This document shows, in pieces, positions 35,207 through 49,540 of a DNA stretch of 64,000 nucleotides. Origin of the DNA: Escherichia phage vB_EcoM_phAPEC6; the sequence record MK817115.1; one strand, 5' to 3'. Numbering within the stretch: position 1 is the first letter of the stretch; every line of letters starts with the position of its first letter. The notes beneath the pieces are model-generated. The model was not told where the DNA came from. It saw only the letters and a program-made list of their open reading frames with translations, and did no database searches. The position numbers and the translations under genes are program-made.

Positions 35207-35403
35207 TGTTTCCTCGTGGACAATATTTTATTTTTCAATGTATCCATATATTGAATCACCCATCTTTCCTGATAGTTAGTTCCCAAAGTAATCAAAAGGT
35301 ATAACTCCATTCGTTCTACGTGTGTGTCTGTATTATAAATCTTTGTGAAGTTTTTACGTAACAGTGATTGATATTCTTCTTTATTTAAAATACGCATTTT
35401 CAT
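35203..35403 (-). CDS. family B paralog
   Basis: ORF track 66 aa; motif TLGTNYQERWVIQYM. Confidence 0.65.
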   Translation of the reverse strand: MKMRILNKEEYQSLLRKNFTKIYNTDTHVERMELYLLITLGTNYQERWVIQYMDTLKNKILSTRKQ

Positions 35404-35597
35404 AGTTTACTCGTTATATCTTCAATTAAATACCAAATCCAATCGTTGACATACCTTTCCTGAAAGTTAGTTCCAATGAATAGTGCCATAATTAATTCAC
35501 GCTTATAGGCAATACCACGGTCATGGGACTTATACATTATCATAGCCATGTTATTGATAAGTCTTTCGTGGTGCTGTTCTTTAGTTAAAATACGCAT
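35400..35597 (-). CDS. family B paralog (first gene of array)
   Basis: ORF track 35400..35627; motif FIGTNFQERYVNDWI; start set to Met of MRILTKEQ which follows SD AAGGGAG. Confidence 0.65.
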   Translation of the reverse strand: MRILTKEQHHERLINNMAMIMYKSHDRGIAYKRELIMALFIGTNFQERYVNDWIWYLIEDITSKL

Positions 35598-35627
35598 AGG
35601 GACTCCCTTAAAATTATTATCGATCAT

Positions 35628-35846
35628 ATTTTATACGATTCATATAAAAAGTCAATAACATTTTATTCGTAATACCCCTTTATCGAAGTCGCTAAGGTTA
35701 CCCGCCCTTTAGCCCCCTACGCATTTTGCCATAGTCCAATCCCTTTTATTTCAAAAAAGTCAAGGGATTACCTATGCATTTTTTTAACGCATAATTTTAA
35801 AAACGCCTTGACTTTTTTCTGAATCAGTACTAGATCCCTTTACGCA
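35628..35846 (-). promoter_or_regulatory. regulatory region upstream of family B array (promoter-like TTGACT-N16-TAAAAT plus inverted and direct repeats)
   Basis: minus-strand TTGACT..TAAAAT about 40 nt upstream of array start; inverted repeat AATCCCTT..AAGGGATT; repeated cctttacgcatt-like motif three times. Confidence 0.4.
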
Positions 35847-36056
35847 TTAATCCTTCGTTACGCTAACGATTATCTGTGTATCCCCGTAGTCCTGCCATAC
35901 TTCCACGCCATCGGTCGCCCTGGTTAGTCGTGCTGTCATCTGCTTAATGGTCTTAGGCTTTAGTGGAACCTGTTGCAGTACTGTACGCATAGCATCATTG
36001 ACGTTATCATGTACGCCTGCAATAGTACCTAGAACGCTGTATACTGTATAGAACAT
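35847..36056 (-). CDS. hypothetical protein (69 aa)
   Basis: ORF track; SD AGGAG upstream; small hairpin GGCCGC..GCGGCC upstream. Confidence 0.6.
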   Translation of the reverse strand: MFYTVYSVLGTIAGVHDNVNDAMRTVLQQVPLKPKTIKQMTARLTRATDGVEVWQDYGDTQIIVSVTKD

Positions 36057-36124
36057 ATGTATGTACTCCTGATATAGTTAAGGCCGCTACAAGGCGGCCT
36101 ATGATGTTTGGTGATGTGTAACGC

Positions 36125-36526
36125 TTACAGTCCTAAGATAGTGCGTGCTTCGTTACGTTCCGTACACAGCTGCATGATGTGAGCAAGTAAGTCCTTGCTA
36201 ATGTATCCGTTGTCCATAGCTTCACGGATAGATACATCATAAGCACCGAACCCCGTGCGAACGATACGCACATCATTCAGGTTAGTATTATAGATACCGC
36301 CGAGATCAACGGCTTCGAATACTACATCAACAGAATATTCATTGTTGCCATCGTGGAAGTTTTCCAGTGCAATAGTATTGGATACCGCCCAACGTTTGCA
36401 GTTTCCAATGATGCGGCACTGTTCCGGTTGGATAGTGCCATTACTTACAGCGTACTCCAGTGCATCTTTACCGAAAGTCCGAGCCAGTACTAAAACGTCA
36501 GCGAAGGAATTGATTGAGAAGGTCAT
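36125..36526 (-). CDS. hypothetical protein (~133 aa)
   Basis: ORF track 36125..36559; start moved to MTFSINSF Met behind SD AAGGAG; track N-terminal extension translates the promoter hairpin. Confidence 0.6.
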   Translation of the reverse strand: MTFSINSFADVLVLARTFGKDALEYAVSNGTIQPEQCRIIGNCKRWAVSNTIALENFHDGNNEYSVDVVFEAVDLGGIYNTNLNDVRIVRTGFGAYDVSIREAMDNGYISKDLLAHIMQLCTERNEARTILGL

Positions 36527-36547
36527 GATAAAACTCCTTAATTTAGG

Positions 36548-36612
36548 AGGGAGAACCATTTCCCCCTCTCTATGTAAAACATTATACTTGATTCTAAGTA
36601 CTATGCAAGTAC
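36548..36612 (-). promoter_or_regulatory. early-type promoter + 5' GC hairpin cassette (PeSL-like)
   Basis: minus-strand TTGCAT-N16-TATAAT followed by hairpin around GGGAGAACCATTTCCCCC, then SD and ATG. Confidence 0.55.
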
Positions 36613-36615
36613 TTT

Positions 36616-36948
36616 TTACATTTTAATACCTGGATTCAGGTAGCGGTGAGATCCATATTCTGGATCGGTTTCGGTCCAGTACTGTAAATCTATAGTACCT
36701 TTAGCGTTAATCTTGTCTACCAGCTTATTCATCTTAGCGTATACTACATCAGCATCGATGCGTTTAAAGCCAGTAGCTTTAGTGAAGTAGTAGTGATTTG
36801 CTTCACTATCATTAAGGATATACCGAGCACCGTTTGCAGTCTGTGCGATAATGATTGAGTATTCTACTTCCCGATCCAGACCGTCGATGAATACAGATGA
36901 AACATTGGTACGGATGAAAGCTTTAACGATAGCGATTGAAGTACTCAT
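36616..36948 (-). CDS. hypothetical protein (110 aa)
   Basis: ORF track; SD AGGAG; own promoter TTGACA-N17-AATAAT upstream. Confidence 0.65.
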   Translation of the reverse strand: MSTSIAIVKAFIRTNVSSVFIDGLDREVEYSIIIAQTANGARYILNDSEANHYYFTKATGFKRIDADVVYAKMNKLVDKINAKGTIDLQYWTETDPEYGSHRYLNPGIKM

Positions 36949-37153
36949 TTTGAATCTCCTAACTTTGTGGGCCGTCGCACCATTGCCGCCCTACGAGATA
37001 CATTATTGCAGTACTGATATACTTTGTCAATACTTTTTTATTAATAGTTTTAGTTCCACCAGCAGATAGTTACTCACCGTTATTAACTATATATTTTGGA
37101 TACACTCCTGCACCCAGTGGGCTAGTTTTTGTCTATGCGTATATAATAGCAAA

Positions 37154-37181
37154 GGGACTGACCGGAGTCAATCCCTTTTTT
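37154..37181. terminator. intrinsic terminator hairpin (conserved repeat-element copy 1)
   Basis: GGGACTGAC-cgga-GTCAATCCC followed by TTTTTT on plus; A-run on other side (bidirectional potential). Confidence 0.45.
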
Positions 37182-37192
37182 ATTCTTTTTTG

Positions 37193-37393
37193 TTAGATGA
37201 TTCTCCAATCTTCTACGATCATGGTAAGATAACGGACCATCGATTCAAGTGATTCGAATTCCCGATAGTCTGCCGCTCCACCAGCGGTACAAGTACAGCC
37301 GATTAAACCATTTTGCAATTCCTTAATCTGTACATCGATAAGGTTGGCTTTAGCTTCTTTCAGTACTTCAACCAGGGCGATAGCGATAGACAT
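37193..37393 (-). CDS. hypothetical protein (66 aa)
   Basis: ORF track; SD GGAGT. Confidence 0.6.
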   Translation of the reverse strand: MSIAIALVEVLKEAKANLIDVQIKELQNGLIGCTCTAGGAADYREFESLESMVRYLTMIVEDWRII

Positions 37394-37415
37394 AATGTTT
37401 TACTCCAAACTATTA

Positions 37416-37476
37416 GCGGGAGAACTATTCCCCCGCTCTATGTAAAACATTATACATTACTGGTTAGTACTGTCAA
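37416..37476 (-). promoter_or_regulatory. early-type promoter + 5' GC hairpin cassette (PeSL-like)
   Basis: TTGACA-N16-TATAAT then hairpin GCGGGAGAACTATTCCCCCGC. Confidence 0.55.
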
Positions 37477-37483
37477 ATAGTTT

Positions 37484-37741
37484 TTATGAAATATCTTCGA
37501 TGTAGTCGGCCCATTTCATTTTTTCAGTACTGTCAATGGCTACCGGATTATTTGGATCAAACCATTCACCATTACCGCAGTACATACCAACGGCTACGGT
37601 TTTATAGCCATCCTGGGCCGTACTCCACGACATTGCACGATAGATATGGCCTTTAACTGGTTGCAGTACTGGTAATGTTTTATGGTCTTCTACGTAGGCC
37701 ATAGCTTGAGGATTTACCCGATATTGTGTGAACTGTTCCAT
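37484..37741 (-). CDS. hypothetical protein (85 aa)
   Basis: ORF track; SD AAGGGGA; promoter TTGACA-N17-TGTAAT upstream. Confidence 0.6.
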   Translation of the reverse strand: MEQFTQYRVNPQAMAYVEDHKTLPVLQPVKGHIYRAMSWSTAQDGYKTVAVGMYCGNGEWFDPNNPVAIDSTEKMKWADYIEDIS

Positions 37742-37817
37742 TATGTTTCCCCTTGTAGTTAGTAAAGTTATTACATCAGTACTATCAAGCTATGTCAATA
37801 GTACTGAAATAAAACTT

Positions 37818-38042
37818 TTAGATTAGATTATTGATGCCTGAAATGGTAGACTCACTTTCTTCTTTCTCCCATTGGCGGTAGTACTTCCACGCTTCATGAT
37901 AGGTGGCGATCAGTTCATCTTTTTGATCCTGAGTACATGCCAGTACTGAATCACTGTAAGCGGTGTTATAGATAGAATCGAATGATTTCTTCTCTTCTGC
38001 CAGGTTAGCTACTTCCCGCATCAGTTCATCAAAGTTAGCCAT
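37818..38042 (-). CDS. hypothetical protein (~74 aa)
   Basis: ORF track 37818..38087; start moved to MANFDEL Met downstream of hairpin. Confidence 0.55.
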   Translation of the reverse strand: MANFDELMREVANLAEEKKSFDSIYNTAYSDSVLACTQDQKDELIATYHEAWKYYRQWEKEESESTISGINNLI

Positions 38043-38061
38043 TTTAGTACTCCTTATTAGT

Positions 38062-38120
38062 GGGGGAGGATATCTCCCCCTATGCAAAACATTATACTTT
38101 GTTTTAGTTATTATGCAAGT
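38062..38120 (-). promoter_or_regulatory. early-type promoter + 5' GC hairpin cassette (PeSL-like)
   Basis: TTGCAT-N16-TATAAT then perfect hairpin GGGGGAG-gatat-CTCCCCC. Confidence 0.55.
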
Positions 38121-38374
38121 ACTTTTTTCATATAAACATTAAATTCTACACCGCCGTAACCTTCTACGATGATATGTTTTGCGTTATCACGTTTGCACAT
38201 AGTGAAACCGTTGTTGATGTGTTCTGCATTTTCCAGGGCGACATCACCGATAGCGGCACATACGGCACTAATAACAGTATTCCGCAAAGTACTGGTATCA
38301 TTAGCGGTCATAGTAGTTTGCAGTACTACGTTGTCGTATACGTGTGCATTGATAGTGATTTCGATAGTGTTCAT
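38111..38374 (-). CDS. hypothetical protein (87 aa)
   Basis: ORF track; SD AGGAG. Confidence 0.6.
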   Translation of the reverse strand: MNTIEITINAHVYDNVVLQTTMTANDTSTLRNTVISAVCAAIGDVALENAEHINNGFTMCKRDNAKHIIVEGYGGVEFNVYMKKVLA

Positions 38375-38391
38375 GGTGTATCTCCTGCACA

Positions 38392-38455
38392 GTCGGGAGA
38401 ACTATTCCCCCGCTCTATGTAAAACATTATACGTTAATCTAACTACAATGCAAGT
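38392..38455 (-). promoter_or_regulatory. early-type promoter + 5' GC hairpin cassette (PeSL-like)
   Basis: TTGCAT..TATAAT then hairpin GAGCGGG..CCCGCTC. Confidence 0.55.
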
Positions 38456-38460
38456 ACTTT

Positions 38461-38652
38461 TTAAATTTTATTTCCGATATAGTCCGGTCTATTCTTTTCG
38501 GTCATACGCTTTGCTAATGTTTGCATATGGCTTATTGCGTTTAATGTGTCTTCCTCCAGGGATGAATCAACATAATCAGGATCATTCTTCACCTTGCAAT
38601 GATTATGATAGCGTAGTACTGCCAGTACTTTTTTAACTTCTTCTACTGTCAT
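38461..38652 (-). CDS. hypothetical protein (63 aa)
   Basis: ORF track; start overlaps stop of upstream gene. Confidence 0.55.
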   Translation of the reverse strand: MTVEEVKKVLAVLRYHNHCKVKNDPDYVDSSLEEDTLNAISHMQTLAKRMTEKNRPDYIGNKI

Positions 38653-38921
38653 AATAAGTACCCCACTTCGTTAGCTTTCAGGTTAGTATCAATCATCAGT
38701 GGATTTTTGTAGTTCACAAAACGATTAGTTTTCTCGATAGCGAATCCCATATAATCCAGCTTACTAACAGTACATTCATTCTTAAAAACTTCTTTCGCTG
38801 CATTGATGGCTGATTCAATTGATAACCGACCATCTAAGTTAATGTTTCCAAATGATCCACCAGCAGAAGTAGGATTACCGTTCATATCTTTAATGATCAT
38901 AGTAGCGGAGTAGCTAGACAT
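38649..38921 (-). CDS. hypothetical protein (90 aa)
   Basis: ORF track; SD AAGGAA. Confidence 0.6.
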   Translation of the reverse strand: MSSYSATMIIKDMNGNPTSAGGSFGNINLDGRLSIESAINAAKEVFKNECTVSKLDYMGFAIEKTNRFVNYKNPLMIDTNLKANEVGYLL

Positions 38922-38943
38922 AATTTTGTTTCCTTTTAGTATC

Positions 38944-39002
38944 GGGGAGAACTATTCTCCCCTTGATGTAAACTATTATACAGTACTAAGATACTTTGTC
39001 AA
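38944..39002 (-). promoter_or_regulatory. early-type promoter + 5' GC hairpin cassette (PeSL-like)
   Basis: TTGACA-N16-TATAAT then hairpin GGGGAGAA-cta-TTCTCCCC. Confidence 0.55.
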
Positions 39003-39005
39003 TAC

Positions 39006-39227
39006 TTAATTACGTTTAAAATGATATGTGCCTTTATCATCCTGTACGCCCCATACTGATTTACCATCAACACCAGTGAAACCGGATTGTAATTCAATAT
39101 GGAAACCATTATTATCAACTACAAAAACTTTTTTATTTTCATCCCGATAACATTGATATTCTGAATCAACATTAAAGGCCGCATCATTCAGAAGATTGGA
39201 AGCGTAAATGCAAGTCATTGTAGTCAT
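39006..39227 (-). CDS. hypothetical protein (~73 aa)
   Basis: ORF track 39006..39302; start moved to MTTMTCIYAS Met behind SD AAGGAA. Confidence 0.55.
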   Translation of the reverse strand: MTTMTCIYASNLLNDAAFNVDSEYQCYRDENKKVFVVDNNGFHIELQSGFTGVDGKSVWGVQDDKGTYHFKRN

Positions 39228-39247
39228 GATTTTATTCCTTATTGCCA

Positions 39248-39308
39248 GGGAGAACCATTTCCCCCTCTCGATATAAAACATTATACTTGATTCTAAGTAC
39301 AATGCAAG
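39248..39308 (-). promoter_or_regulatory. early-type promoter + 5' GC hairpin cassette (PeSL-like)
   Basis: TTGCAT-N16-TATAAT then hairpin GGGAGAACCATTTCCCCC. Confidence 0.55.
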
Positions 39309-39422
39309 TACTTTTTATCAAATACTTTAAAATAGTTTTCAGTACTGAATACTTATATAATAGATACACTTATGCACCCTGTGGGTCAGTGAGTTATCTC
39401 TCAATGAATATATATTAGCAAA

Positions 39423-39450
39423 GGGACTGACCGGAGTCAATCCCTTTTTT
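39423..39450. terminator. intrinsic terminator hairpin (conserved repeat-element copy 2)
   Basis: GGGACTGAC-cgga-GTCAATCCC + TTTTTT on plus; lies just downstream of kinase-like gene stop on minus. Confidence 0.45.
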
Positions 39451-39458
39451 AATCTTTT

Positions 39459-40043
39459 TTATCGTGTTATAGTTACGGCTTTTACATCACGCTTTTTATA
39501 GTACTGATTCCAGATATTGCGGGTTAAACCGTAATCAAGTACTTTAATAAGTCCATTACGATCCTGGCCGATATTCTGTTTTCTGATATCTCTTATCGTT
39601 AGTGTTGATAATGTATCATCGACGTGTTGTAGTGCATCAGCAAAGCGGTGCTGGCGTTCAATGGCATTACGTTTAATATTGTACTTTAATTCGTTGCACG
39701 CGTTAACGTGCTTCACACTGCCTTTACTTGCAGTACTCAACCGATCCATAACGATAAACATATTATCAGGATCGCATAAATGCATATGCACCTTTGCAAA
39801 GTACTGTTTCAATTGAGGGCGGTCATAGTCTAAAAAATTCCATACCTTACATTCAGTTTCATTTTGTTCTACACCCGCATCACAATTGGCGACCTTAATC
39901 ACTAACCGATCATTTAAAGCGAATACGATACGGGAAGAACCCGCCCCGATGATCTCCAGGCCAGCTAACCGACAAGCTGAAAGGATCTCTTTGTTGGTTT
40001 CCATTTCTGACAGTGTACGGATGAATTTAGTATAATTACGCAT
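39459..40043 (-). CDS. putative Ser/Thr protein kinase-like protein
   Basis: ORF track 39459..40100, start moved to Met behind SD AAGGAG; Gly-rich loop IGAGSSRIVF, VIKV lysine, catalytic-loop-like RDIRKQNIG, DYG (DFG-like) motif. Confidence 0.5.
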   Translation of the reverse strand: MRNYTKFIRTLSEMETNKEILSACRLAGLEIIGAGSSRIVFALNDRLVIKVANCDAGVEQNETECKVWNFLDYDRPQLKQYFAKVHMHLCDPDNMFIVMDRLSTASKGSVKHVNACNELKYNIKRNAIERQHRFADALQHVDDTLSTLTIRDIRKQNIGQDRNGLIKVLDYGLTRNIWNQYYKKRDVKAVTITR

Positions 40044-40074
40044 TGCATGTTCTCCTTGAGTTAATGAAACTATC

Positions 40075-40317
40075 TTACAGTACTTTACTATCAATGGCAA
40101 CCACTTTTTTCACACTAACCGCGTGAATCACTTCCTTAGTGTTTTTAGTACTGAATACTTTCGCTGTTCCTTGTTCTACTGCAATGCGATAACGACCGTT
40201 AACATCAACCATATTAATAAAGTCCGGTGTACTAAACCGAGTAGTACGGCATTTCAGTACTGTTAACAATTCCACCAGCGATGTAGTTTCTTTGATACGT
40301 TTTTCTAAAGTAATCAT
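40075..40317 (-). CDS. hypothetical protein (80 aa)
   Basis: ORF track; promoter TTGACA-N17-TACTAT upstream. Confidence 0.6.
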   Translation of the reverse strand: MITLEKRIKETTSLVELLTVLKCRTTRFSTPDFINMVDVNGRYRIAVEQGTAKVFSTKNTKEVIHAVSVKKVVAIDSKVL

Positions 40318-40375
40318 TTTGTTTTCCCCCGTGTTGGTATGTACATATAGTACTAAAACATTTGAGTACTGTCAA

Positions 40376-40594
40376 TTAGATAATAGAATATTTCTTTAGT
40401 GATAATGCGTCTTCTGTCGGTTGATATTCTACACCGTTCCCGTTATCAACCTTAGTGAGTAAACCTTTATCAATGAGTTTTTTGATGGTACGGTTTCCCT
40501 GTTGAAAACTGGTGAAGTGTGAATCATTACGAAAGGTATAACCGTGCTTCACTGCTTCATCAATAGTTTTCTTTTCGATTTTAGATAATTTCAT
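40376..40594 (-). CDS. hypothetical protein (~72 aa)
   Basis: ORF track 40376..40654; start moved to MKLSKIEK Met because promoter TTGACA-N17-TATTAT overlaps the track N-terminus. Confidence 0.55.
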   Translation of the reverse strand: MKLSKIEKKTIDEAVKHGYTFRNDSHFTSFQQGNRTIKKLIDKGLLTKVDNGNGVEYQPTEDALSLKKYSII

Positions 40595-40650
40595 TTTGTT
40601 TCTCTCTCTGTGTTGGTATAGATACATAATACTAAAACAATTGAGTACTG

Positions 40651-40905
40651 TCAACGTGATATTAGTTTTATTTTTTTATTGTATTGTTGGTGTTCATATA
40701 GATTAATTTTTCCAGTACTCTCAATTACTATTCTATTGTTAGTGTCTACATCGATAACACGTAGTTTCCCGTTGCTTAACTTCCTGGGTAATAGACTACC
40801 ATTAATAAACTCATTAGCAAGCTGTACGGCCTTTGTGATGATTCTCTGTGGTGCTTTATAGTGTACCCGCAAGATATTATCTTTAGATAGTTGTACCTTC
40901 ATCAT
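40651..40905 (-). CDS. hypothetical protein (84 aa)
   Basis: ORF track; SD AGGAT. Confidence 0.6.
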   Translation of the reverse strand: MMKVQLSKDNILRVHYKAPQRIITKAVQLANEFINGSLLPRKLSNGKLRVIDVDTNNRIVIESTGKINLYEHQQYNKKIKLISR

Positions 40906-40920
40906 TTTAGTTTATCCTAT

Positions 40921-40946
40921 AAAAAAAGGCGGGAACTGAACCCGCC
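40921..40946 (-). terminator. intrinsic terminator
   Basis: hairpin GGCGGG-aactgaa-CCCGCC with T-run on minus side (A7 on plus) directly after stop of 40970..41365. Confidence 0.5.
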
Positions 40947-40969
40947 GTGTTGTTAGTACTGCAAAGTTA

Positions 40970-41365
40970 TTAGATAACCTGGCGGCGTTTACTGTATACT
41001 GTTACACGGTTTCCTTTACGGTCATGACGGATCTCTTTCTGGTTACGAATCAGTTCACTTGGACGCTTAAGGTTTGCCAGGTGATCCGCGTGAGTCCATG
41101 CATTTGCGTTAACTGTAACTTCAATATCAGAACCTTTCAAAAAGTCATCTTGAGCGTTCAGTACTTCAGCCAGTTCTTGAGCTTGCTTTAGTTCTGCTTC
41201 AGTAAGTACAGGCTCAGGTGAATTCACAATATCAGAGATCTCTTTGAACTGTACCGCCCAGCGTTGTCCTTTCGGTGCATCTTTGCCCATGTCTTTAAAT
41301 GTTTCACCTTCTTCACGAGCAACGATGCGAGCTTGTTCACGGGTAGCGAAGAATTTAGTAATCAT
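40970..41365 (-). CDS. hypothetical protein; paralog of 52987..53253
   Basis: ORF track; shares FATREQAR..TFKDMG..RKGNRVTVY with 52987..53253. Confidence 0.6.
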   Translation of the reverse strand: MITKFFATREQARIVAREEGETFKDMGKDAPKGQRWAVQFKEISDIVNSPEPVLTEAELKQAQELAEVLNAQDDFLKGSDIEVTVNANAWTHADHLANLKRPSELIRNQKEIRHDRKGNRVTVYSKRRQVI

Positions 41366-41464
41366 GGTGTACATCCTATTAGTTAAGTTAATTAGTACTA
41401 CAAGTTAGAGTCTATTATAAAGTACTATCTGGGCAATGTCAAATAGTACTTTAAATGGATTCTA

Positions 41465-41788
41465 TTACATGTCTTTTTTACGTTTTACATCGTAGTAACG
41501 AACTGTAATTTCTTTGTTGATCTCATCCTCAATTCTGTGTAGTACTTTCTCTTTCGGGTTGAAACCTATTACAGTTTCTTTAATGATCTCCAAGCCCGTG
41601 TATTCGCCTTGTGTACCGTAACCGTAAGTAAAGGTTTCATGTCCCAGGTCTTCCCAGCGGTCACCAATCAATGCAGACACGTAGCATGAGTGGTAAGTAT
41701 TGCCGTGGCTATCAGTCCACCGATTAACTTTAATGTCAAAGGAAGTTACAATTTTCATTTCTACTTTCTGGGCAAGGATCATAGTCAT
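41465..41788 (-). CDS. hypothetical protein; paralog of 47657..48001
   Basis: ORF track 107 aa; shared GNTY.S, YGYG, DVKRKKD with 47657..48001. Confidence 0.6.
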   Translation of the reverse strand: MTMILAQKVEMKIVTSFDIKVNRWTDSHGNTYHSCYVSALIGDRWEDLGHETFTYGYGTQGEYTGLEIIKETVIGFNPKEKVLHRIEDEINKEITVRYYDVKRKKDM

Positions 41789-41875
41789 TTTAATTTCTCT
41801 CTTTTTGTTAGGAAGGGAACCATTCCCCTCACTTGATGTAAACTATTATACAGTACTAAGATACTTTGTCAATAC

Positions 41876-42151
41876 TTAAGTATTGTAAATGTCGTGAATA
41901 GTGATAAAGTTTTTACGACCGTAAACATGTAAATCAGTATCAATGTAGTGCTTATCAAGTACATCCTCGACGCTTAAAGCCGTGTCGTGAATATCTTCAT
42001 AGAATTGTGGATCTACAATCTTACTTAAATCATCCGGCGTTAACTTATCATTGAGCCATTGCACCGCCTGGATATCTGCATCACGTTTCCAGTCTTCCAG
42101 GTTAGTAGTCAGTACTTGCTCGATTTCGTTAGCTGTCAGTAGAATCCGCAT
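41876..42151 (-). CDS. hypothetical protein (91 aa)
   Basis: ORF track; promoter + hairpin GTGGGGAActatTCCCCAC upstream. Confidence 0.6.
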   Translation of the reverse strand: MRILLTANEIEQVLTTNLEDWKRDADIQAVQWLNDKLTPDDLSKIVDPQFYEDIHDTALSVEDVLDKHYIDTDLHVYGRKNFITIHDIYNT

Positions 42152-42240
42152 TTTAATTTCTCTCTTTGTTAGGTGGGGAACTATTCCCCACTTGATGTAA
42201 AATATTATACAGTACTAAAAACTATTGTCAAACTATTTTA

Positions 42241-42441
42241 TCAAATTGTTTCCCATTTCATGTTACCCGCTTTACGCTGTGAAACAGGAATAAACATGTT
42301 ATTAATGTTACTAATATAACCGACCTGTAAGTCACGCTGTGAACCATACGCCCGACTTGCTGCATTTTTAGCACCGCGTTCTGATTTATAAACGCCGCTG
42401 GATACTGTAAAGCCTACTACACCGAAAGTAAAATGTTTCAT
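42241..42441 (-). CDS. hypothetical protein (66 aa)
   Basis: ORF track; SD AGAGGA; preceded by tandem promoters and structured leader. Confidence 0.6.
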   Translation of the reverse strand: MKHFTFGVVGFTVSSGVYKSERGAKNAASRAYGSQRDLQVGYISNINNMFIPVSQRKAGNMKWETI

Positions 42442-42507
42442 TTTGTATTCCTCTTTGTGGTTGATGTAAGTATTATACTCGTTTAATTTCTATTGTCAAA
42501 CTATTTT

Positions 42508-42581
42508 ATCAGGGGAGGTTTTCGTATGTCTTACTCCTGGACTACTTAACGGGGTTACTTATTTCGTTCCCCGTCCTGATG
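42508..42581 (-). ncRNA. conserved structured 5' leader element, copy 1
   Basis: ~75 nt between two sigma70-like promoters; closing stem ATCAGG/CCTGAT with two internal hairpins; near-identical copy at 52314-52389, diverged copy near 49351-49421. Confidence 0.35.
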
Positions 42582-42726
42582 TAAAACATTATACTTGATT
42601 CTAAGTACAATGCAAGTACTTTTTAAAAATAGTTTTCAGTACTTGATAGTACTAGCCACCAGCATATAATAGATACATTTATGCACCCTGTGGGTTAGAT
42701 TGTTTCTATGCATATATAATAGCAAA

Positions 42727-42754
42727 GGGACTGACCGGAGTCAATCCCTTTTTT
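42727..42754. terminator. intrinsic terminator hairpin (conserved repeat-element copy 3)
   Basis: GGGACTGAC-cgga-GTCAATCCC + TTTTTT. Confidence 0.45.
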
Positions 42755-42762
42755 AAATCTTT

Positions 42763-42912
42763 TTAAACTTGTTTTGGGTTGCGATATGTGATAGCGTTCG
42801 GGTACATTTGTTTAATGTTATTCCATGCCTGGTTAACATTGTAACCACTTGATCGAATCAGTTGGTTACTTCCTACGCCCTGAAACACTACTTCGAATAA
42901 GAATTCTTTCAT
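42763..42912 (-). CDS. small protein (49 aa), hypothetical
   Basis: own reading: MKEFLFEVVFQGVGSNQLIRSSGYNV...; ATGA overlap with upstream ORF; below track cutoff. Confidence 0.35.
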   Translation of the reverse strand: MKEFLFEVVFQGVGSNQLIRSSGYNVNQAWNNIKQMYPNAITYRNPKQV

Positions 42913-43079
42913 GCTGCAATCCCCTCTGATTTACCTTTACGCCAGGCGTTAGCCAGTTCATTACGTTGCCATACATCCAATGCAATGTATAGTTTAGCAG
43001 TATCCCCTTTAGGGTATTCGCCAGTAGTGCCTAACCGATAAAACAGATCTTTCAGTACTGATAATTCTACTTGGATCAT
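42909..43079 (-). CDS. small protein (56 aa), hypothetical
   Basis: own reading: MIQVELSVLKDLFYRLGTTGEYPKGD...; ATGA overlaps both neighbours. Confidence 0.35.
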   Translation of the reverse strand: MIQVELSVLKDLFYRLGTTGEYPKGDTAKLYIALDVWQRNELANAWRKGKSEGIAA

Positions 43080-43168
43080 TGTATTACTCCTGATTGTGTT
43101 AGTACTTCTACGATGGCATGAATGATCATAAGTACAGCTAACACAACAATCATCGGATTCATTTGCAT
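43076..43168 (-). CDS. hydrophobic micro-protein (30 aa), putative membrane peptide
   Basis: own reading: MQMNPMIVVLAVLMIIHAIVEVLTQSGVIQ; SD GAAGGAG 8 nt upstream. Confidence 0.35.
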   Translation of the reverse strand: MQMNPMIVVLAVLMIIHAIVEVLTQSGVIQ

Positions 43169-43185
43169 AAGCTGTACTCCTTCTA

Positions 43186-43398
43186 TTAATCTTTCAGCCA
43201 ATGATCTTGAATGAATTTTTCACAGAATCCCTGTTTCATAGATTCTAACAGGCGTTCACGGTGAGCGGCGGCATATTGCTCAGTACTATGCGTTACGCCA
43301 GGTTGATAACGTGAAACACCGTCCGGTCCGATATATTGAACATCCCACGGTTTTTCGTTAGTATCAGACCATTTACGAACGATTAGTTGACCTTGCAT
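43186..43398 (-). CDS. hypothetical protein (70 aa)
   Basis: ORF track; SD AGAGGAA. Confidence 0.6.
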   Translation of the reverse strand: MQGQLIVRKWSDTNEKPWDVQYIGPDGVSRYQPGVTHSTEQYAAAHRERLLESMKQGFCEKFIQDHWLKD

Positions 43399-43415
43399 GT
43401 TTCTTTCCTCTTAGT

Positions 43416-43476
43416 GGGGAGAATCATTTCTCCCCTTCATGTAAACTATTATACAGTACTATAATCTATTGTCCAG
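43416..43476 (-). promoter_or_regulatory. early-type promoter + 5' GC hairpin cassette (PeSL-like)
   Basis: TGGACA-N16-TATAAT then hairpin GGGGAGAA-tcat-TTCTCCCC. Confidence 0.55.
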
Positions 43477-43483
43477 TACTTTT

Positions 43484-43672
43484 TTACAGTTTATGAATCA
43501 ATTCTTTATCTAAGCGATAGCGTACATTATTAATGGTAACAGCATTATTTTTAATGCTACGCTGTACTGGCCCACCAGCAATAACAAACGTTGCTTTATT
43601 ACCCCGAACAATGATAGCACTACCAGGATTGCCAAAATCATCTTGTACTAAAATACTTGATAAGTTTTCCAT
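43484..43672 (-). CDS. hypothetical protein (~62 aa)
   Basis: ORF track 43484..43678; start moved 2 codons to Met behind SD AGAGGAA. Confidence 0.55.
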   Translation of the reverse strand: MENLSSILVQDDFGNPGSAIIVRGNKATFVIAGGPVQRSIKNNAVTINNVRYRLDKELIHKL

Positions 43673-43750
43673 TTTCATTTCCTCTTAGTAGGGGAAGACG
43701 TTTCCCCTTGATGTAAGTACTATAACAGTACTGGAAACTAAATGCAAGTA

Positions 43751-44107
43751 CTACGATAAAATCATGATAGGATATTCACTATCGATCAGTACTTCAAATC
43801 CAAAACTTTCATACCATTCTTTAAGATTAAAGGCGTTATCTTCTCCCGTATCGCATTCTAAAATGATACAATCTGAATCATCGGCGGCATCAATAAAGGC
43901 GTTCATCAATTCCGTACCTTCACCATTACCCCGACTAGCAGGATCAACATAAAGAGAATCAATAAACGCTACACGGTCATAATCAAGATCCGGTGCAATG
44001 ATTCCACGTTTAACAAACCAGTACTGCAATTGTGCTACTTTGCCCTGTACTTGATAGCCAGTGATCTCGCCATTGTCAGTAGTACGCGTGGTATGTTGTA
44101 TTCCCAT
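43751..44107 (-). CDS. GNAT-family N-acetyltransferase-like protein
   Basis: ORF track 118 aa; acetyl-CoA-binding-like RGNGEGTELM and C-terminal WYESFGFE resembling GNAT motifs A/B. Confidence 0.45.
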   Translation of the reverse strand: MGIQHTTRTTDNGEITGYQVQGKVAQLQYWFVKRGIIAPDLDYDRVAFIDSLYVDPASRGNGEGTELMNAFIDAADDSDCIILECDTGEDNAFNLKEWYESFGFEVLIDSEYPIMILS

Positions 44108-44170
44108 GATTTCTATCCTCAGTTAAGATATAAAATATTATACACTATCTTTCAGTACTGTCAATACTTT

Positions 44171-44428
44171 TTATCTCATAGATCTATGCCAACAATTACG
44201 CGGATCTCTTTTAAAAGTACTATCATGATCCTCCTGGCAAGTTATGCAATACTTACATCCCTTAACAGCCTGGCGGCGATTCTCAGGGATTTTATCGCCA
44301 CAGTCGAGGCAATGTATCAGTGATTCTATTTGTGCGTTAATTTGCTTTCTAGCGTGGTTTACGGCGGCCTGAATCACTGCGTTAATCTCGTCTTGCTCGG
44401 CCCCGTCTTTCGCGAATCCTACAGCCAT
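44171..44428 (-). CDS. TraR/DksA-type C4 zinc-finger protein
   Basis: ORF track 85 aa; CLDCGDKIPENRRQAVKGCKYCITCQ (CxxC-N17-CxxC, as in TraR/DksA family). Confidence 0.45.
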   Translation of the reverse strand: MAVGFAKDGAEQDEINAVIQAAVNHARKQINAQIESLIHCLDCGDKIPENRRQAVKGCKYCITCQEDHDSTFKRDPRNCWHRSMR

Positions 44429-44625
44429 TATTTTAACTTTTTTCTGTCATTGATTAATGCTTTCAGTACTATACTAATGATTTGCAATGATTCATCAATA
44501 ACTATAAAATTATTTTCTTTCATTAGATGATAGTTACCATTGATATTATATTCTAACGAGTACTGTTTACGTTTAATTTTTGATAATGTTTCTATTTGTT
44601 TTTGTACTGATTTCATGCTAATCAT
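44428..44625 (-). CDS. hypothetical protein (65 aa)
   Basis: ORF track; translationally coupled to downstream gene (TAATG). Confidence 0.55.
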   Translation of the reverse strand: MISMKSVQKQIETLSKIKRKQYSLEYNINGNYHLMKENNFIVIDESLQIISIVLKALINDRKKLK

Positions 44626-44730
44626 TGTTAAACGTCCTGTAACGCATTCTAACGAGATAAACGGTTTAGTACTGGCATTGTATAGGGTAATGGATTAAAG
44701 CCCACCAGCGTTAACCAGTGGGCTATAATC

Positions 44731-44874
44731 TTACATCTTGCGGATAATCTTAACAGTATCTTTCACCGATTTACCGTTTTGCTGACATTGTTCGATCATC
44801 GCGTATTGTTCTGCGGTCAGATCCTCGCCAGTTTTTGCCAGTACTGCATCGATGAATGAATCTAGTGCGATCAT
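44731..44874 (-). CDS. small protein (47 aa), hypothetical
   Basis: own reading: MIALDSFIDAVLAKTGEDLTAEQYAMIEQCQQNGK...; own promoter TTGACA-N16-TATAAT upstream. Confidence 0.35.
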   Translation of the reverse strand: MIALDSFIDAVLAKTGEDLTAEQYAMIEQCQQNGKSVKDTVKIIRKM

Positions 44875-44973
44875 TTTGTTTCTCTCTTAGGTTAAGTTAA
44901 CTACTGTTTATAAAACTTATTATACAGTACTATCAAACTATGTCAATATCTTTAATAGTACTGGTAATATATT

Positions 44974-45153
44974 TTAGCGGTAGTCGTCGTATGCTTTATT
45001 CACCTGGCGAATGTAACTTTCAAAGGCTTCGTCTACCGTTTCATACTCCCGAACATAATCACCATAGGAAACTACATACATCCCTTTTTGATCTTCAAAC
45101 GTCATGATGATAGAATCCAGGCCGATGATTTCAGTTTTTGCGATGATAGCCAT
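44974..45153 (-). CDS. small protein (59 aa), hypothetical
   Basis: own reading: MAIIAKTEIIGLDSIIMTFEDQKGMYVV...; SD AGGAA; own promoter TTGACA-N16-TATAAT. Confidence 0.4.
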   Translation of the reverse strand: MAIIAKTEIIGLDSIIMTFEDQKGMYVVSYGDYVREYETVDEAFESYIRQVNKAYDDYR

Positions 45154-45234
45154 TTTTAATTCCTTAGTAGTGTAGTTGATAAAACTTATTATACAGTACT
45201 ATCAAACTATGTCAATAGTACTGTGATAATATTT

Positions 45235-45447
45235 TTAGTTAATGATAGTCAGTGTAAAATTGTAATCCCCTGCCTGGTATAGTACTTTGTCGCCGAACGT
45301 ACCAACACGTTTCATATTGCAATAGATACCCATAACACTTTTTACATCTTTGATATTCCGAACGCCTGTGATATCCTTGTTGAAATTTTCATGATCAGAA
45401 AATAAAACTTGTTTTGCATTTTTCAGTACAGTGCAGATATTAGCCAT
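45235..45447 (-). CDS. hypothetical protein (70 aa)
   Basis: ORF track; SD AGAGAA. Confidence 0.6.
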   Translation of the reverse strand: MANICTVLKNAKQVLFSDHENFNKDITGVRNIKDVKSVMGIYCNMKRVGTFGDKVLYQAGDYNFTLTIIN

Positions 45448-45467
45448 TTTGATTTCTCTTTGTTAGT

Positions 45468-45527
45468 GGGGAGAACTATTCTCCCCTTGATGTAACTTAT
45501 TATACAGTACTATAATCTATTGTCAAA
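45468..45527 (-). promoter_or_regulatory. early-type promoter + 5' GC hairpin cassette (PeSL-like)
   Basis: TTGACA-N16-TATAAT then hairpin GGGGAGAA-cta-TTCTCCCC. Confidence 0.55.
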
Positions 45528-45540
45528 CTATTTTTTAATA

Positions 45541-45882
45541 TTATTCAAAATCTTCTGGACCGGACTGATAATCATCTTCACCGTATGCACTTTCTAACTT
45601 CTCGCCAGTGTGATCATCAGTTAGTGAGTCATCCTCATAGTTCACGTCTACGCCCGTGATGTAAAACTGGCTATCGTCTGGATCATTGAAATTAATTTTC
45701 TGAATGTTTACAATAACGGTATTGATGCCCAGGACACCGCCATCAGCAGTTACAAAGTACTGATAGTTTTCACAACCGCCTGTATTGAAACCGTAATTAA
45801 TTTCGGCCCGACCATCATTTAAACGCAGTGCCTGGGCGATGATTTCGTTTTCAAAGTTAGATTGAGCAATTGAGATAGTCAT
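45541..45882 (-). CDS. hypothetical protein (~113 aa)
   Basis: ORF track 45541..45945; start moved to MTISIAQS Met downstream of hairpin. Confidence 0.55.
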   Translation of the reverse strand: MTISIAQSNFENEIIAQALRLNDGRAEINYGFNTGGCENYQYFVTADGGVLGINTVIVNIQKINFNDPDDSQFYITGVDVNYEDDSLTDDHTGEKLESAYGEDDYQSGPEDFE

Positions 45883-46065
45883 GATTCGTTTCCTTATTAC
45901 CAGGGGAAACCGTTTCCCCTCTCGATGTAAAACATTATACGCCAATTGAGATAGTTTGCAAGTACTTTTTAAAAATAGTTTTCAGTACTCAATACTTATA
46001 TAATAGATACACTTATGCACCCGGTGGGCTAGTGAGCTATCTCTCAATGAATATATAATAGCAAA

Positions 46066-46094
46066 ATGGCTGACCGAAGTCAACCACTTTTTTC
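46066..46094. terminator. intrinsic terminator hairpin (conserved repeat-element copy 4, diverged)
   Basis: TGGCTGAC-cgaa-GTCAACCA + TTTTTT. Confidence 0.4.
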
Positions 46095-46096
46095 AT

Positions 46097-46231
46097 TTAT
46101 TTTTTAGCTTTCAGTACTGCCGCCTTTCGCGTCATGCCTTGCTTAATGTACTCCTTTACTTTCGCTTTACGTGCTTTCGCTTTATCTGCTTTCGTTTTAG
46201 GAGTACTGTAAATTAAACCGTTAGGATTCAT
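46097..46231 (-). CDS. small basic protein (44 aa), hypothetical
   Basis: own reading: MNPNGLIYSTPKTKADKAKARKAKVKEY... Confidence 0.3.
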   Translation of the reverse strand: MNPNGLIYSTPKTKADKAKARKAKVKEYIKQGMTRKAAVLKAKK

Positions 46232-46321
46232 TTAAATCACCATAAAGAATAGATAGGTTACTAACAATGCCGCGATCAATGCACCGATCACCGCTGAACT
46301 GTAATAAGCTAATGATTTCAT
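46232..46321 (-). CDS. hydrophobic micro-protein (29 aa), putative membrane peptide
   Basis: own reading: MKSLAYYSSAVIGALIAALLVTYLFFMVI; ATGA overlap with upstream gene stop. Confidence 0.3.
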   Translation of the reverse strand: MKSLAYYSSAVIGALIAALLVTYLFFMVI

Positions 46322-46500
46322 TTTTTAGCCTGGAAGTAATGTTTAATTTGTGCGGCGGTCAGTGCACAATTACGCAGGAAGTTTTCTGTATAACTGCGGC
46401 GAGTACTGAAAGAGAATTGACCTTTGCCGTTACCGATAGTAACATCAAACCGAGCGTTGTATTGTTTCATTTTGTTTCTCCTGTTATTGGGGAGAATCAT
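46318..46500 (-). CDS. hypothetical protein (60 aa)
   Basis: ORF track; SD AGGAG. Confidence 0.6.
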   Translation of the reverse strand: MILPNNRRNKMKQYNARFDVTIGNGKGQFSFSTRRSYTENFLRNCALTAAQIKHYFQAKK

Positions 46501-46549
46501 TTCTCCCCTTCATGTAAAACATTATACAGTACTAAAAACTAATTGCAAG
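46489..46549 (-). promoter_or_regulatory. early-type promoter + 5' GC hairpin cassette (PeSL-like)
   Basis: TTGCAA-N16-TATAAT then hairpin GGGGAGAA-tcat-TTCTCCCC. Confidence 0.55.
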
Positions 46550-46551
46550 TA

Positions 46552-46698
46552 CTATTTTTTAGATTTACGCAAACTTTCTACCATCTCAGGAGTAAGGCCA
46601 GGCGGGTAGGAAACCACTTCATCAACGAAACGTAAAGGGAATACCCCAGCGAAAGGTGAACATGCTTTCTTAGTATTACTCTTTTTTGATGCTTTCAT
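46552..46698 (-). CDS. small protein (48 aa), hypothetical
   Basis: own reading: MKASKKSNTKKACSPFAGVFPLRFVDEV...; preceded by promoter + hairpin GGAGAGAAtcatTTCTCCCC. Confidence 0.35.
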   Translation of the reverse strand: MKASKKSNTKKACSPFAGVFPLRFVDEVVSYPPGLTPEMVESLRKSKK

Positions 46699-46767
46699 TT
46701 CATATTCCTTAATTAGTGGAGAGAATCATTTCTCCCCTTCATGTAAAACATTATACGCGTTTAAAAA

Positions 46768-46977
46768 CTAATTGCAAGTATTATTTGAAAGTAAATGCTC
46801 ATACGCTGCATTAACTACGTTTTCAATAACCGACTGTACAGAAAGATCCCCCACGTCCTGGCTATAGTAGAAATCGCTTACAGTACTATCATCGTATGCA
46901 AATACTTTACCAGGATCTGCATCAATCACATACATATTAACCTTTAAGATGTCGATCTTATCCTGTACAGTAAGCAT
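46768..46977 (-). CDS. hypothetical protein (69 aa)
   Basis: ORF track. Confidence 0.55.
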   Translation of the reverse strand: MLTVQDKIDILKVNMYVIDADPGKVFAYDDSTVSDFYYSQDVGDLSVQSVIENVVNAAYEHLLSNNTCN

Positions 46978-46982
46978 ATTAA

Positions 46983-47255
46983 TTAACCTTTTAAGTACTG
47001 GCTTAAGTAGTCTTGTTGATCTTCGGTGATTGCAGCCATCTTCCCTAGTACTGGATTGATGATATAATCCCCTGTAACGTCCTGTAACGCATTCTCAGGC
47101 GGTTTAACGGCTGGGGTAGCCATAGCCATTGCCTGGACTTGTTCGACGCTGTAACGCTCATAAAGGCGGCATTCTTCCGGTGTTAACATAGCATCAGTAC
47201 GCTTCATCGGTTTAATGATGCTTTCGATCTCATTCAGTACTTGATTAACGTTCAT
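46983..47255 (-). CDS. hypothetical protein (90 aa)
   Basis: ORF track. Confidence 0.6.
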   Translation of the reverse strand: MNVNQVLNEIESIIKPMKRTDAMLTPEECRLYERYSVEQVQAMAMATPAVKPPENALQDVTGDYIINPVLGKMAAITEDQQDYLSQYLKG

Positions 47256-47306
47256 GGTATAATCCCCAATATAAGCGGCCTAAATCGACCGCTAACGATG
47301 TTTTGA

Positions 47307-47576
47307 TTAATAGGTGTATGGTTGACGCTCAAACAATGAATAGACGTTATACGCCCCGCTTATGGGCTTCGCTGGTAAATCAATTTTATATTGTTCACGC
47401 TTAAAGATAATAAAACGGCAATTGTTTTTAACATCAAAATTGATTGAACGTTCCAGGAGTTTACCATCGTGCACAAATACAAGATAACCGCTCGCTACTT
47501 GTTTTGTAGTACTGGTTGCAACCATAGACCGCCGAACATGTGTACCTGCATCAATTAAAGTACTGATATTTTTCAT
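47307..47576 (-). CDS. hypothetical protein (89 aa)
   Basis: ORF track. Confidence 0.6.
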   Translation of the reverse strand: MKNISTLIDAGTHVRRSMVATSTTKQVASGYLVFVHDGKLLERSINFDVKNNCRFIIFKREQYKIDLPAKPISGAYNVYSLFERQPYTY

Positions 47577-47656
47577 TATACTATCTTCTTAAGTTAATTT
47601 AATTTCTTTCCCCTATGCAGACACTATATCAAAGTATCTGCATAAAGTAAAGCTAA

Positions 47657-48001
47657 TTAAAGATCTTTTTTGCGTTTAACATCAGTTACCGAACTGTAAA
47701 CAGTGATATTATTGTCACGGCAAAAACGGGAAAGATAAGAACCGCGTAAAAACTCTTTATCTTCCATATTAATAACCTTGCTAAATTCTTCCATTGCTAC
47801 AGTGTCAAAGTGATCCCCGTATCCATATTGGAACGGCACGTTTACTACTTCAATAAAATTACCATCAATTTCTACGTCTACACTTAAAGAGAAATAAGTG
47901 TTACCATATGAAGCCTGGAACCAACGCCGAGCGGCAATATGTACAACTTCAACAGAAGACAGGTTGATATTTTGTTTTGCGATAGTGTTGATATTAGCCA
48001 T
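47657..48001 (-). CDS. hypothetical protein; paralog of 41465..41788
   Basis: ORF track 114 aa; shared GNTY, YGYG, DVKRKKD motifs. Confidence 0.6.
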   Translation of the reverse strand: MANINTIAKQNINLSSVEVVHIAARRWFQASYGNTYFSLSVDVEIDGNFIEVVNVPFQYGYGDHFDTVAMEEFSKVINMEDKEFLRGSYLSRFCRDNNITVYSSVTDVKRKKDL

Positions 48002-48082
48002 TTTAATTTCCTCTTAGTTGTCTTGATAAAATCTATTATGCCAGTACTATCAAACTATGTCAATAGTACTGTGATAATATTT

Positions 48083-48226
48083 TTACTTACTTTTTGCTTT
48101 CTTTGCTGCTTCCACCTGGTCGGCCCATTCTTTACCCCATACTTGTAAATTATAATGGTACTGGCAAAGTGCAACGCCCCGCTTTAAACCAGTAATAGAT
48201 TTTTTACCACATTGACAAGTTTTCAT
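48083..48226 (-). CDS. small Cys-containing protein (47 aa), hypothetical
   Basis: own reading: MKTCQCGKKSITGLKRGVALCQYHYNLQ...; preceded by promoter + hairpin. Confidence 0.35.
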   Translation of the reverse strand: MKTCQCGKKSITGLKRGVALCQYHYNLQVWGKEWADQVEAAKKAKSK

Positions 48227-48312
48227 ATTAGTTTCCTCATTATCAGGGAGAACCATTTCTCCCCTTGATGTAATGTATTATACTTTATCTGATTTACTTT
48301 GCAAGTACTTTT

Positions 48313-48540
48313 TTAATTTAATTCATCCAGGCAAAGGATACGCTCAACGCCCAAATCAGTTAAACTAATCGACGGCACTTGATAGGTTTCAATGTATGCT
48401 ACACTTGCCCACTGACCGAACTCATTAACGGCCCATTTATCCATTGCAAAATGCAATTCCGCACCTTTCTTATTAGTAATTACAGCAACAGTAGAAGAAT
48501 TGCCAGTAGTACCAGTTACGCGAGTGATTACGATAGCCAT
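48313..48540 (-). CDS. hypothetical protein (~75 aa)
   Basis: ORF track 48313..48597; start moved to MAIVITRV Met downstream of hairpin. Confidence 0.55.
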   Translation of the reverse strand: MAIVITRVTGTTGNSSTVAVITNKKGAELHFAMDKWAVNEFGQWASVAYIETYQVPSISLTDLGVERILCLDELN

Positions 48541-48775
48541 TGTTTTAATTCCTTTGATTTGGAAGGAGAACCGTTTCCCCCTCTCGATGTAAAACATTAT
48601 ACGCTAATCTCTTAATCGTGCAAGTACTTTTTATTACTTTTTGCAAAATACTTTAAACGCACTCAATCGCGTTCTTACAGCCTTAACGCCACCAGCTAGG
48701 GCAATGCATCAGATAATCAGTTTAATGCGTTAGAATCGATTCTAGGCGGTGCTGGTGGCCTGGTAAACGTTAAAC

Positions 48776-48803: not shown

Positions 48804-48824
48804 AGTGATTCAGTACTTTAATTG

Positions 48825-49534: not shown

Positions 49535-49540
49535 ATGTAC

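Follow-up and report, generated by a model that had tools for sequence, protein, structure and literature searches.

Among the known sites at which phage chromosome ends are formed, the cos site of phage lambda consists of the nicking site cosN flanked by cosB, with its terminase-binding R sites, and by cosQ. The pac sites at the concatemer junctions of T7 and T3 go with short and exact terminal repeats of 160-230 bp, where each of the two cuts, left and right, depends on specific sequences adjoining the repeat, and where duplication of the repeat, for which a hairpin-primed model exists, has been linked to inverted repeats near the junction. In Bacillus phage SPO1, there is a 13-kb terminal redundancy with host-takeover genes. 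In T5, the injection stop signal (iss) is located in the untranslated part of the left terminal repeat and is rich in repeats, inverted repeats and palindromes, and the T5-like iss is a large untranslated region with eight ordered DnaA boxes (Davison, bioRxiv 10.1101/866236).

Regarding the RaK2-like jumbo phages, terminal repeats of about 20 kb have been reported for many of them. The direct terminal repeat (DTR) of fEgEco12 was published as 20,993 bp, on which PhageTerm and restriction digests agree; that of Sharanji, which is near-identical to G17, was given by PhageTerm as 20,668 bp, and the terminal repeat of G17 was observed as doubled coverage. PhageTerm DTRs were also published for ELP-22, E9.1 and BF17, and the 8.3-kb repeat of UE-S1 is misassigned in the view of the fEgEco12 authors. 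The papers examined on Asteriusvirus and RaK2-like DTRs give lengths only: neither the boundary sequence, nor the rule GGACTATG-N35-CT↓TAGC presented below (the arrow marks the cut), nor conservation across genera is described there, and terminal repeats are passed over in a recent review of jumbo phages. That these phages have a DTR is already known, while its boundary motif and the cross-genus rule appear to be undescribed. At the same time, many Asteriusvirus and Alcyoneusvirus records have arbitrary start points or hold one repeat copy.

The window analysed here is a stretch of 64,000 nucleotides (64 kb) from Escherichia phage vB_EcoM_phAPEC6 (MK817115.1), an Asteriusvirus, i.e. a jumbo coliphage like PBECO4, 121Q and G17. 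A 4-kb query around the non-coding gap of interest matched 41 phage records with 80-99% identity. The original prediction had seen in the interval 35628-35846 a promoter with its Shine-Dalgarno site, together with inverted and direct repeats as possible operators of the gene array that follows. The genes around the gap are on the minus strand. Upstream of it lies the last gene of the DTR in the ORF list, with 69 aa (35847..36056, minus strand; stop TAA 35849..35847), which is annotated as a CDS in G17, 121Q, vB_Ec-M-J and others; downstream of it lies the first gene (35400..35597, minus strand; an orthologous CDS of 198 nt in G17, 121Q and vB_Ec-M-J) of an array of paralogous ~70-aa genes, the family-B array, which runs from 35597 leftward to about 29.6 kb and of which 14 ORFs were matched by one BLASTP query at E<=1e-3. 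The mechanically called ORF, 35400-35627, begins at an ATG within the -10 region of the promoter, but the gene probably starts at the ATG at 35597..35595, behind the Shine-Dalgarno sequence AAGGGAG (35609..35603, minus strand), as annotated in G17, 121Q and vB_Ec-M-J, and not at the in-frame ATG 35627. With this start the true gap is 35598-35846, and the predicted Shine-Dalgarno site is indeed present, just outside the interval 35628-35846. Along 35500-36100 there is a step in G+C content, the array having ~33% and the first DTR cassettes ~45%, and the gap has a strong negative GC skew, its minus strand being G-rich beside the cut.

The 69-aa gene has homologues across genera (window 35847-36056; 186-392 in locus L073; 743-952 in locus L076), and ENKO_050, the last DTR gene of fENko-Kae01, shares 38% identity with it (E 2e-14). 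A protein-seeded search of IMG/VR with this gene yielded 121Q only. Its RaK2-type homologue, ORF410, is located 37 kb from the left terminus in a packed gene block outside the predicted DTR; an attempt to locate the RaK2 boundary through the 69-aa gene failed on this position, and the non-coding gap was used instead.

Six deposited records (G17, WPEC3, vB_Ec-M-J, E9.1, BF17 and fEgEco12), which carry both repeat copies, end at one base, position 35695 of the window, from which the plus strand at the right end reads AGGTTACCCGCCC..., and the opposite ends of three records (G17, fEgEco12 and vB_Ec-M-J) map to 55770. Record ends at 35695 and 55770 mean that the window holds one collapsed repeat of 20,076 bp (35695..55770, minus strand), in line with the published PhageTerm and restriction data of relatives. 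Recomputed from the mapping of 35695, the DTR is 20,993 bp in fEgEco12 and 20,668 bp in G17, and the right limit of the DTR annotated in vB_Ec-M-J (1..21525) falls inside the homologous gap. The relatives' records of 366-384 kb hold two copies of the DTR, with two matching places each, and fENko-Kae01 has repeat regions annotated at both ends; as seen through the relatives' records, in which the segment stands at both ends, the repeat has the character of a fixed-end long DTR (PhageTerm class 'DTR long'). For the window the end position is a homology-based transfer, drawn from relatives with 92-99% identity in the gap and from two further genera; some of the deposited ends may themselves have been copied from homologous earlier records instead of being measured, and PhageTerm results of their own are reported for fEgEco12, BF17, Sharanji, Kae01 and Muenster at least. 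By this comparison of sequences, the inner DTR boundary is identified as the right physical end of the virion DNA, between 35695 and 35694, which is the main feature of the gap and was missed by the original prediction. The boundary also divides the gap by content: the terminal 152 bp of the DTR (35695..35846, minus strand) are non-coding and hold all the inverted and direct repeats, and the unique DNA, beginning at 35694, holds only the promoter and the Shine-Dalgarno site.

The DTR contains early-type gene cassettes on the minus strand and consensus sigma70-type promoters. A side observation concerns the motif AGTACT, which is about 14-fold over-represented in the window (270 copies vs 18.7 +- 4 in shuffles; GTAC, 640 vs 213), the palindrome TCAGTACTGA with at most one mismatch occurring 55 times vs 2.6 expected. 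The DTR has ~7 of them per kb and the family-B array hardly any, with the densest part at 36000-60000. The motif is often found between the two hexamers of consensus sigma70-type promoters (TTGACA..CAGTACTG.TATAAT) and also within ORFs, and RaK2, Muenster and fENko-Kae01 have many copies of it near their termini.

The sequence context of the right end is strongly patterned. At the cut, the block AACCT↓TAGCGACTTCGA (35683..35699, minus strand) contains the six record ends, with the DTR ending at 35695 and unique DNA from 35694, and upstream of it, at a distance of exactly 35 nt from the chromosome end, there is a conserved box, GATTGGACTATG (35730..35741, minus strand), with the core GGACTATG at 35737..35730. 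In an alignment of 10 Asteriusvirus-type gaps, among them those of the divergent Turkey5, JNE01 and EJP2, conservation was highest in the block straddling the end, GGGTAACCT↓TAGCGACTTCGA, and outside the cut block the gap has undergone indels and replacements.

The same arrangement holds in three genera with independent read-based termini, represented by Asteriusvirus, fENko-Kae01 and the Alcyoneusvirus Muenster: a GGACTRTK box, exactly 35 nt, and (C/G)CT↓TAGC. The right end in the window reads GATTGGACTATG (35741..35730)-N35-...aCCT↓TAGCg, and the PhageTerm DTR of fENko-Kae01 (1..19736), a Klebsiella phage whose DNA around the terminus gives no BLASTN alignment with the window, ends with GATTGGACTATG-N35-...gCCT↓TAGCc. 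In RaK2, a gap of 784 nt located ~20 kb after the left-terminus homologue contains cGGACTGTG-N35-GGCT↓TAGCAC, which gives the predicted end. Since this RaK2-type cut was predicted from the rule seen in Kae01 and the window, its later match to the annotation of Muenster, where the last base of the 'terminal repeat region predicted by PhageTerm' (1..20030) is the T of the predicted cut, confirms the prediction. RaK2 and Muenster have the box forms GGACTGTG/GGACTGTT at the same 35-nt spacing. Between genera the spacer sequences from box to cut are unrelated and their length is fixed at 35 nt. The box core and the 35-nt spacing are also found in 9 other Asteriusvirus-type sequences, in fENko-Kae01/Munch and in a metagenomic relative (L079), which follows the whole rule of box, 35 nt and cut.

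Within the window the box has one exact copy, the cut block is likewise single, and near-matches are at chance level; the composite pattern GGACTRTG-N33-CTTAGC has 1 match in the window vs 0 in 100 shuffles. As in a cos- or pac-type site, there is a unique and conserved cut sequence at a conserved position. Some variation exists among the relatives: the box of EJP2 is degenerate (GACCTATG), A4 has the box GACCTGTT and a spacer of 36 nt before its putative terminus, and vB_Ec-M-J has an additional T directly after the cut. In metagenomes, a scan of IMG/VR with the exact 14-mer GGGTAACCTTAGCG gave 53 loci, one of them recognised as a relative (121Q), and a scan with an 18-base gapped pattern gave 9 loci, 3 of them Asteriusvirus and the other 6, judged by flanking sequence only, apparently chance matches.

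A second GGACTA(C/T)GG was observed at 35884-35892, in the 3' end of the 69-aa gene, besides the one at 35729-35737, with TTAGCG 17 nt later, and several relatives carry an exact GGACTATG at this place. It loosely mirrors the pair of box and cut and is probably a coincidence or a relic, because no record ends there.

The partner of the right end is the left-terminus block ATTCAGTACTGATATGCCACTA↓AGT (55768..55792, minus strand), where the cut lies between 55770 and 55771 and the first DTR base is 55770. Three Klebsiella Alcyoneusviruses, K64-1, KP13-7 and RCIP0023, share all 25 nt of this block, though their other sequence there is unalignable, and the RaK2 block differs only at TTAAGT. In agreement with the prediction from this block, the Muenster record, which was opened at the PhageTerm terminus, ends with ...GATATGCCACTA and starts with AGTCCG. 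A k-mer comparison of the two DTR boundaries (+-200-250 nt, both orientations) found no extended common motif and yielded only the genome-wide palindrome AGTACTGATT and the 10-mer TAAAGGGGTA, so that there is no evident sequence by which both cuts could be recognised alike. A CTNAG core for both ends was also considered; it fits the window and RaK2 and fails at the left end of Kae01 (CGCTA↓TATC), and it was dropped. As further observations, the chromosome begins with an imperfect palindrome of 26 nt (AGTAGGCAGAGGAAGTCTGCCGTACT), and the left cut is flanked by GTAATCA repeats and two CAAGAATGC repeats (55600-55950).

The repeats of the terminal segment differ much in their significance. The longer of the two predicted inverted repeats is a perfect one of 13 nt (AAAAAAGTCAAGG 35753-35765 / CCTTGACTTTTTT 35806-35818) with TTGACT as its half-site and 40 nt between the arms, in which an inner 9-bp hairpin is held; none of 500 dinucleotide shuffles of the 219 nt reached this length (mean longest 7.5, maximum 12). 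The 8-nt inverted repeat (AATCCCTT 35738-35745 / AAGGGATT 35762-35769, 16 nt between the arms), whose 3' arm abuts the GGACTATG box, is present as predicted, but an inverted repeat of at least 8 nt arises in 43% of the shuffles and this one alone is not above chance. Similarly, the three predicted direct copies of an ACGCATT-type motif do exist (CCCCCTACGCATT 35713-25; CCCTTTACGCATT 35836-48; and a weaker CCTATGCATTTT 35771-82), but a direct repeat of at least 10 nt is present in 10% of the 500 shuffles. AATGCGTA, with 4 copies in the window vs 2.1 expected, is not enriched, and TTGACTTTTT occurs 3 times in the 64 kb, vs 0.6 expected, always within the gap: one copy is the -35 of the array promoter and two are in the repeats. 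Statistically, nothing is notable beyond the long inverted repeat and the TTGACTTTTT triplet.

Among the relatives, AGTCAA...TTGACT inverted repeats are found upstream of the box with 23 nt between the arms in fENko-Kae01, 7 in RaK2 and Muenster, 7 in A4 and 40 in the window type, and L079 has two TTGACT copies in direct orientation. Such variable arm spacing and orientation argue for protein-binding half-sites and not for a required hairpin. Where the element TT(G/A)AC(T/A)TTT is present (window, Kae01, L079, EJP2), it stands 26-27 nt before the box; the RaK2, A4 and Turkey5 types have AACCAATACCTTA in its place, beginning 32 nt before the box. The original prediction proposed conservation in related genomes as a check, on which the promoter hexamers described below held while the repeats fared unevenly: the 13-nt TTGACT inverted repeat is absent from Turkey5 and JNE01, hence it is not essential for end formation, and the 8-nt repeat is retained in L079 and lost in EJP2. 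Their loss in some lineages shows that the inverted repeats are accessory.

Several minor candidates in this segment deserve record. The TTGACT copies inside the DTR were considered as promoters, and no acceptable -10 was seen by eye at 16-18 nt on either strand (ATTGGA, TAGATC). An inverted repeat of 32 nt, 75% complementary, links 35587-35618, the ribosome-binding site and start of the first array gene, with 35753-35784, which holds a plus-strand RBS-like AAGGGATTACC and an ATG with a 6-codon ORF; this mini-ORF (35762-35795, plus strand) was rejected as a candidate, its ATG being lost in EJP2. The array promoter likewise has an imperfect inverted copy at 35808-35825. These inverted links between the start and promoter of the array and the DTR end may be a relic of an inverted duplication.

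Past the cut, the promoter reading of the original prediction finds support, the promoter being conserved in most of the Asteriusviruses that were compared. The sigma70-type TTGACT-N16-TAAAAT (35655..35628, minus strand) begins 39 nt past the cut, in unique DNA, and agrees with the consensus at 10 of the 12 positions. With 63 promoter-like matches in the window vs 60 expected, such matches are at chance level, so the promoter call is based on conservation and not on the match. The -35 TTGACT is identical in every examined Asteriusvirus that retains the segment, and the -10 keeps its fixed 16-nt spacing with T1, A2 and T6 constant (TAAAAT, TATTAT, TAATAT, TATAAT; a perfect TATAAT in EJP2), with drift in the spacer. 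At the equivalent place fENko-Kae01 has the promoter TTGACA-N17-TATACT. The locus thus has what is expected of a sigma70-type promoter, namely hexamers 16-18 nt apart whose key positions are conserved in relatives. In the Salmonella SD phages the promoter is deleted and the repeats are retained. In Salmonella phage SD-15_S21, the deletion (homologous to 35598-35680) lies between two AAGG repeats and brings the first array gene up to sequence ~15 nt beyond the cut; in PBECO4 the sequence is replaced from 12 nt beyond the cut onward. The two cases indicate that rearrangement breakpoints cluster just outside the DTR end.

Taking these data together, we consider that the gap is probably a right-end maturation site for the packaging terminase followed by the sigma70-type promoter of the array, and that the repeats belong more likely to the end site than to an operator. 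On this view the GGACTATG box, probably along with the TTGACT-containing repeats beside it, would be bound by the packaging terminase or by a nuclease associated with it, and cleavage would follow at a fixed distance, 35 nt from the box, in CT↓TAGC. The left cut, 20 kb upstream, would be directed by a different conserved block, ATTCAGTACTGATATGCCACTA↓, and by analogy with T7 and T3 the repeat would have to be duplicated between the two cuts. TTGACT-N16-TAAAAT and the Shine-Dalgarno site would then drive the family-B array from the left DTR copy only, which means that this promoter occurs once per chromosome, immediately after the left repeat.

The reading of the original prediction, by which the repeats, inverted and direct, are binding sites for an early phage regulator of the array promoter, finds some encouragement in the 13-nt inverted repeat far beyond chance, in the use of TTGACTTTTT once as the promoter -35 and twice in the repeats, and in the arms 35637-35655 / 35808-35825, which form an imperfect inverted copy of the promoter. 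We find it very unlikely nevertheless. An operator should overlap or adjoin its promoter and co-occur with it, whereas the closest repeat arm here is 98 nt upstream of the -35 and no repeat overlaps the promoter; the repeats lie in the DTR and are hence duplicated at the right chromosome end with no array promoter after them, and the Salmonella SD phages keep them after losing the promoter. Moreover, Kae01 and RaK2/Muenster have TTGACT repeats upstream of the box despite different downstream genes and promoters, the arm spacing varies from 7 to 23 and 40 nt with the orientation flipped in L079, and across genera it is the chromosome end that the conserved elements track. Another possibility is an intrinsic terminator, in which the 13-nt nested hairpin ending in U6 would end transcription of the last DTR cassette ahead of the array promoter. 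It is rather unlikely as the explanation of the gap, and a terminator function could possibly coexist with the end site as a secondary role. The RNA fold of 35690-35850 is stable (-43 kcal/mol, z -3.5, as stable in 0 of 200 shuffles; z -1.9 for the DNA fold of the terminal segment), with a nested structure whose 13-bp stem encloses the 9-bp hairpin and whose 3' arm is CCUUGACUUUUUU; the stretch from the 69-aa gene to the promoter has no other terminator, and Turkey5 and JNE01 have at the same place an ATGCAT hairpin followed by a T run. A terminator scan of the gap, however, calls none, the arms are separated by a 40-nt loop, and the U run is paired with an A run; in RaK2 and Muenster the last DTR gene is followed by a canonical terminator of its own (annotated in Muenster), and the TTGACT repeat is kept all the same; and the inverted repeats of A4 and RaK2 have no U run after them. 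In Rfam the sole match was bglG-cis-reg with 28 bits against a gathering score of 80, which corresponds to no known RNA family.

A stop signal for DNA injection like that of T5 was also weighed, by which the repeat-rich inner end of the DTR would pause DNA entry until early proteins are made. Its position is analogous to that of the T5 iss, and the DTR cassettes have consensus sigma70-type promoters, but no DnaA box TTWTNCACA occurs between 34,202 and 40,106 (34.2 to 40.1 kb), with the window total at chance, as against eight in T5-like iss regions; the non-coding segment is 152 bp and no large untranslated region; two-step injection is not reported for these phages in the literature examined; and the most conserved element coincides with the cut itself, a position in better accord with end formation. 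We therefore regard this account as highly improbable. Returning to the end site, a more far-reaching form of it would make the gap a 'ruler' end-maturation signal of the whole RaK2-like supergroup, where a protein would read GGACTATG and cut 35 nt away, the cut position being independent of the intervening sequence, and where the flanking TTGACT half-sites, each equal to a strong -35 hexamer, might recruit host RNA polymerase with sigma70 or a phage factor. Such recruitment at the chromosome end would couple end formation, protection or DNA entry to early transcription. In this full form we think the idea unlikely; if it were true, it would give a handle on the duplication of 20-kb terminal repeats.

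In practical terms, a measured end in another genus was correctly predicted from a motif that is short, unique and fixed in its 35-nt spacing, and the motif is a concrete cis element to mutate. With the two terminus motifs, true ends could be set, and records with arbitrary starts or misassigned repeats could be re-oriented. For annotators, the repeats of the gap should be assigned to the chromosome end and not to gene regulation.

The boundary motif belongs to the familiar class of phage end-formation sites. Like lambda cos, it is a unique cis site with protein-binding elements, putative here, at a set distance from a sequence-specific cut; lambda differs in its 12-nt cohesive ends and its lack of a terminal repeat, whereas here two sites 20 kb apart define a duplicated repeat, and the window site has no sequence similarity to cos. 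With T7 and T3 it shares exact, non-permuted ends with a direct terminal repeat, though of 20 kb here against 160-230 bp there, and again there is no sequence similarity. The likeness to T5 is a long DTR with first-expressed genes and a non-coding, repeat-rich inner end, which in T5-like phages is a large region with eight DnaA boxes and here 152 bp with none. SPO1, although of an unrelated lineage, resembles these phages in a long terminal redundancy of short early genes behind strong host-type promoters. The closest systems are the RaK2-like jumbo phages fEgEco12, G17, BF17, Sharanji, vB_Ec-M-J, fENko-Kae01 and Muenster, which have the same feature, a fixed-end DTR of ~20 kb, and the DTR boundary of the window is at the same nucleotide as in their records.
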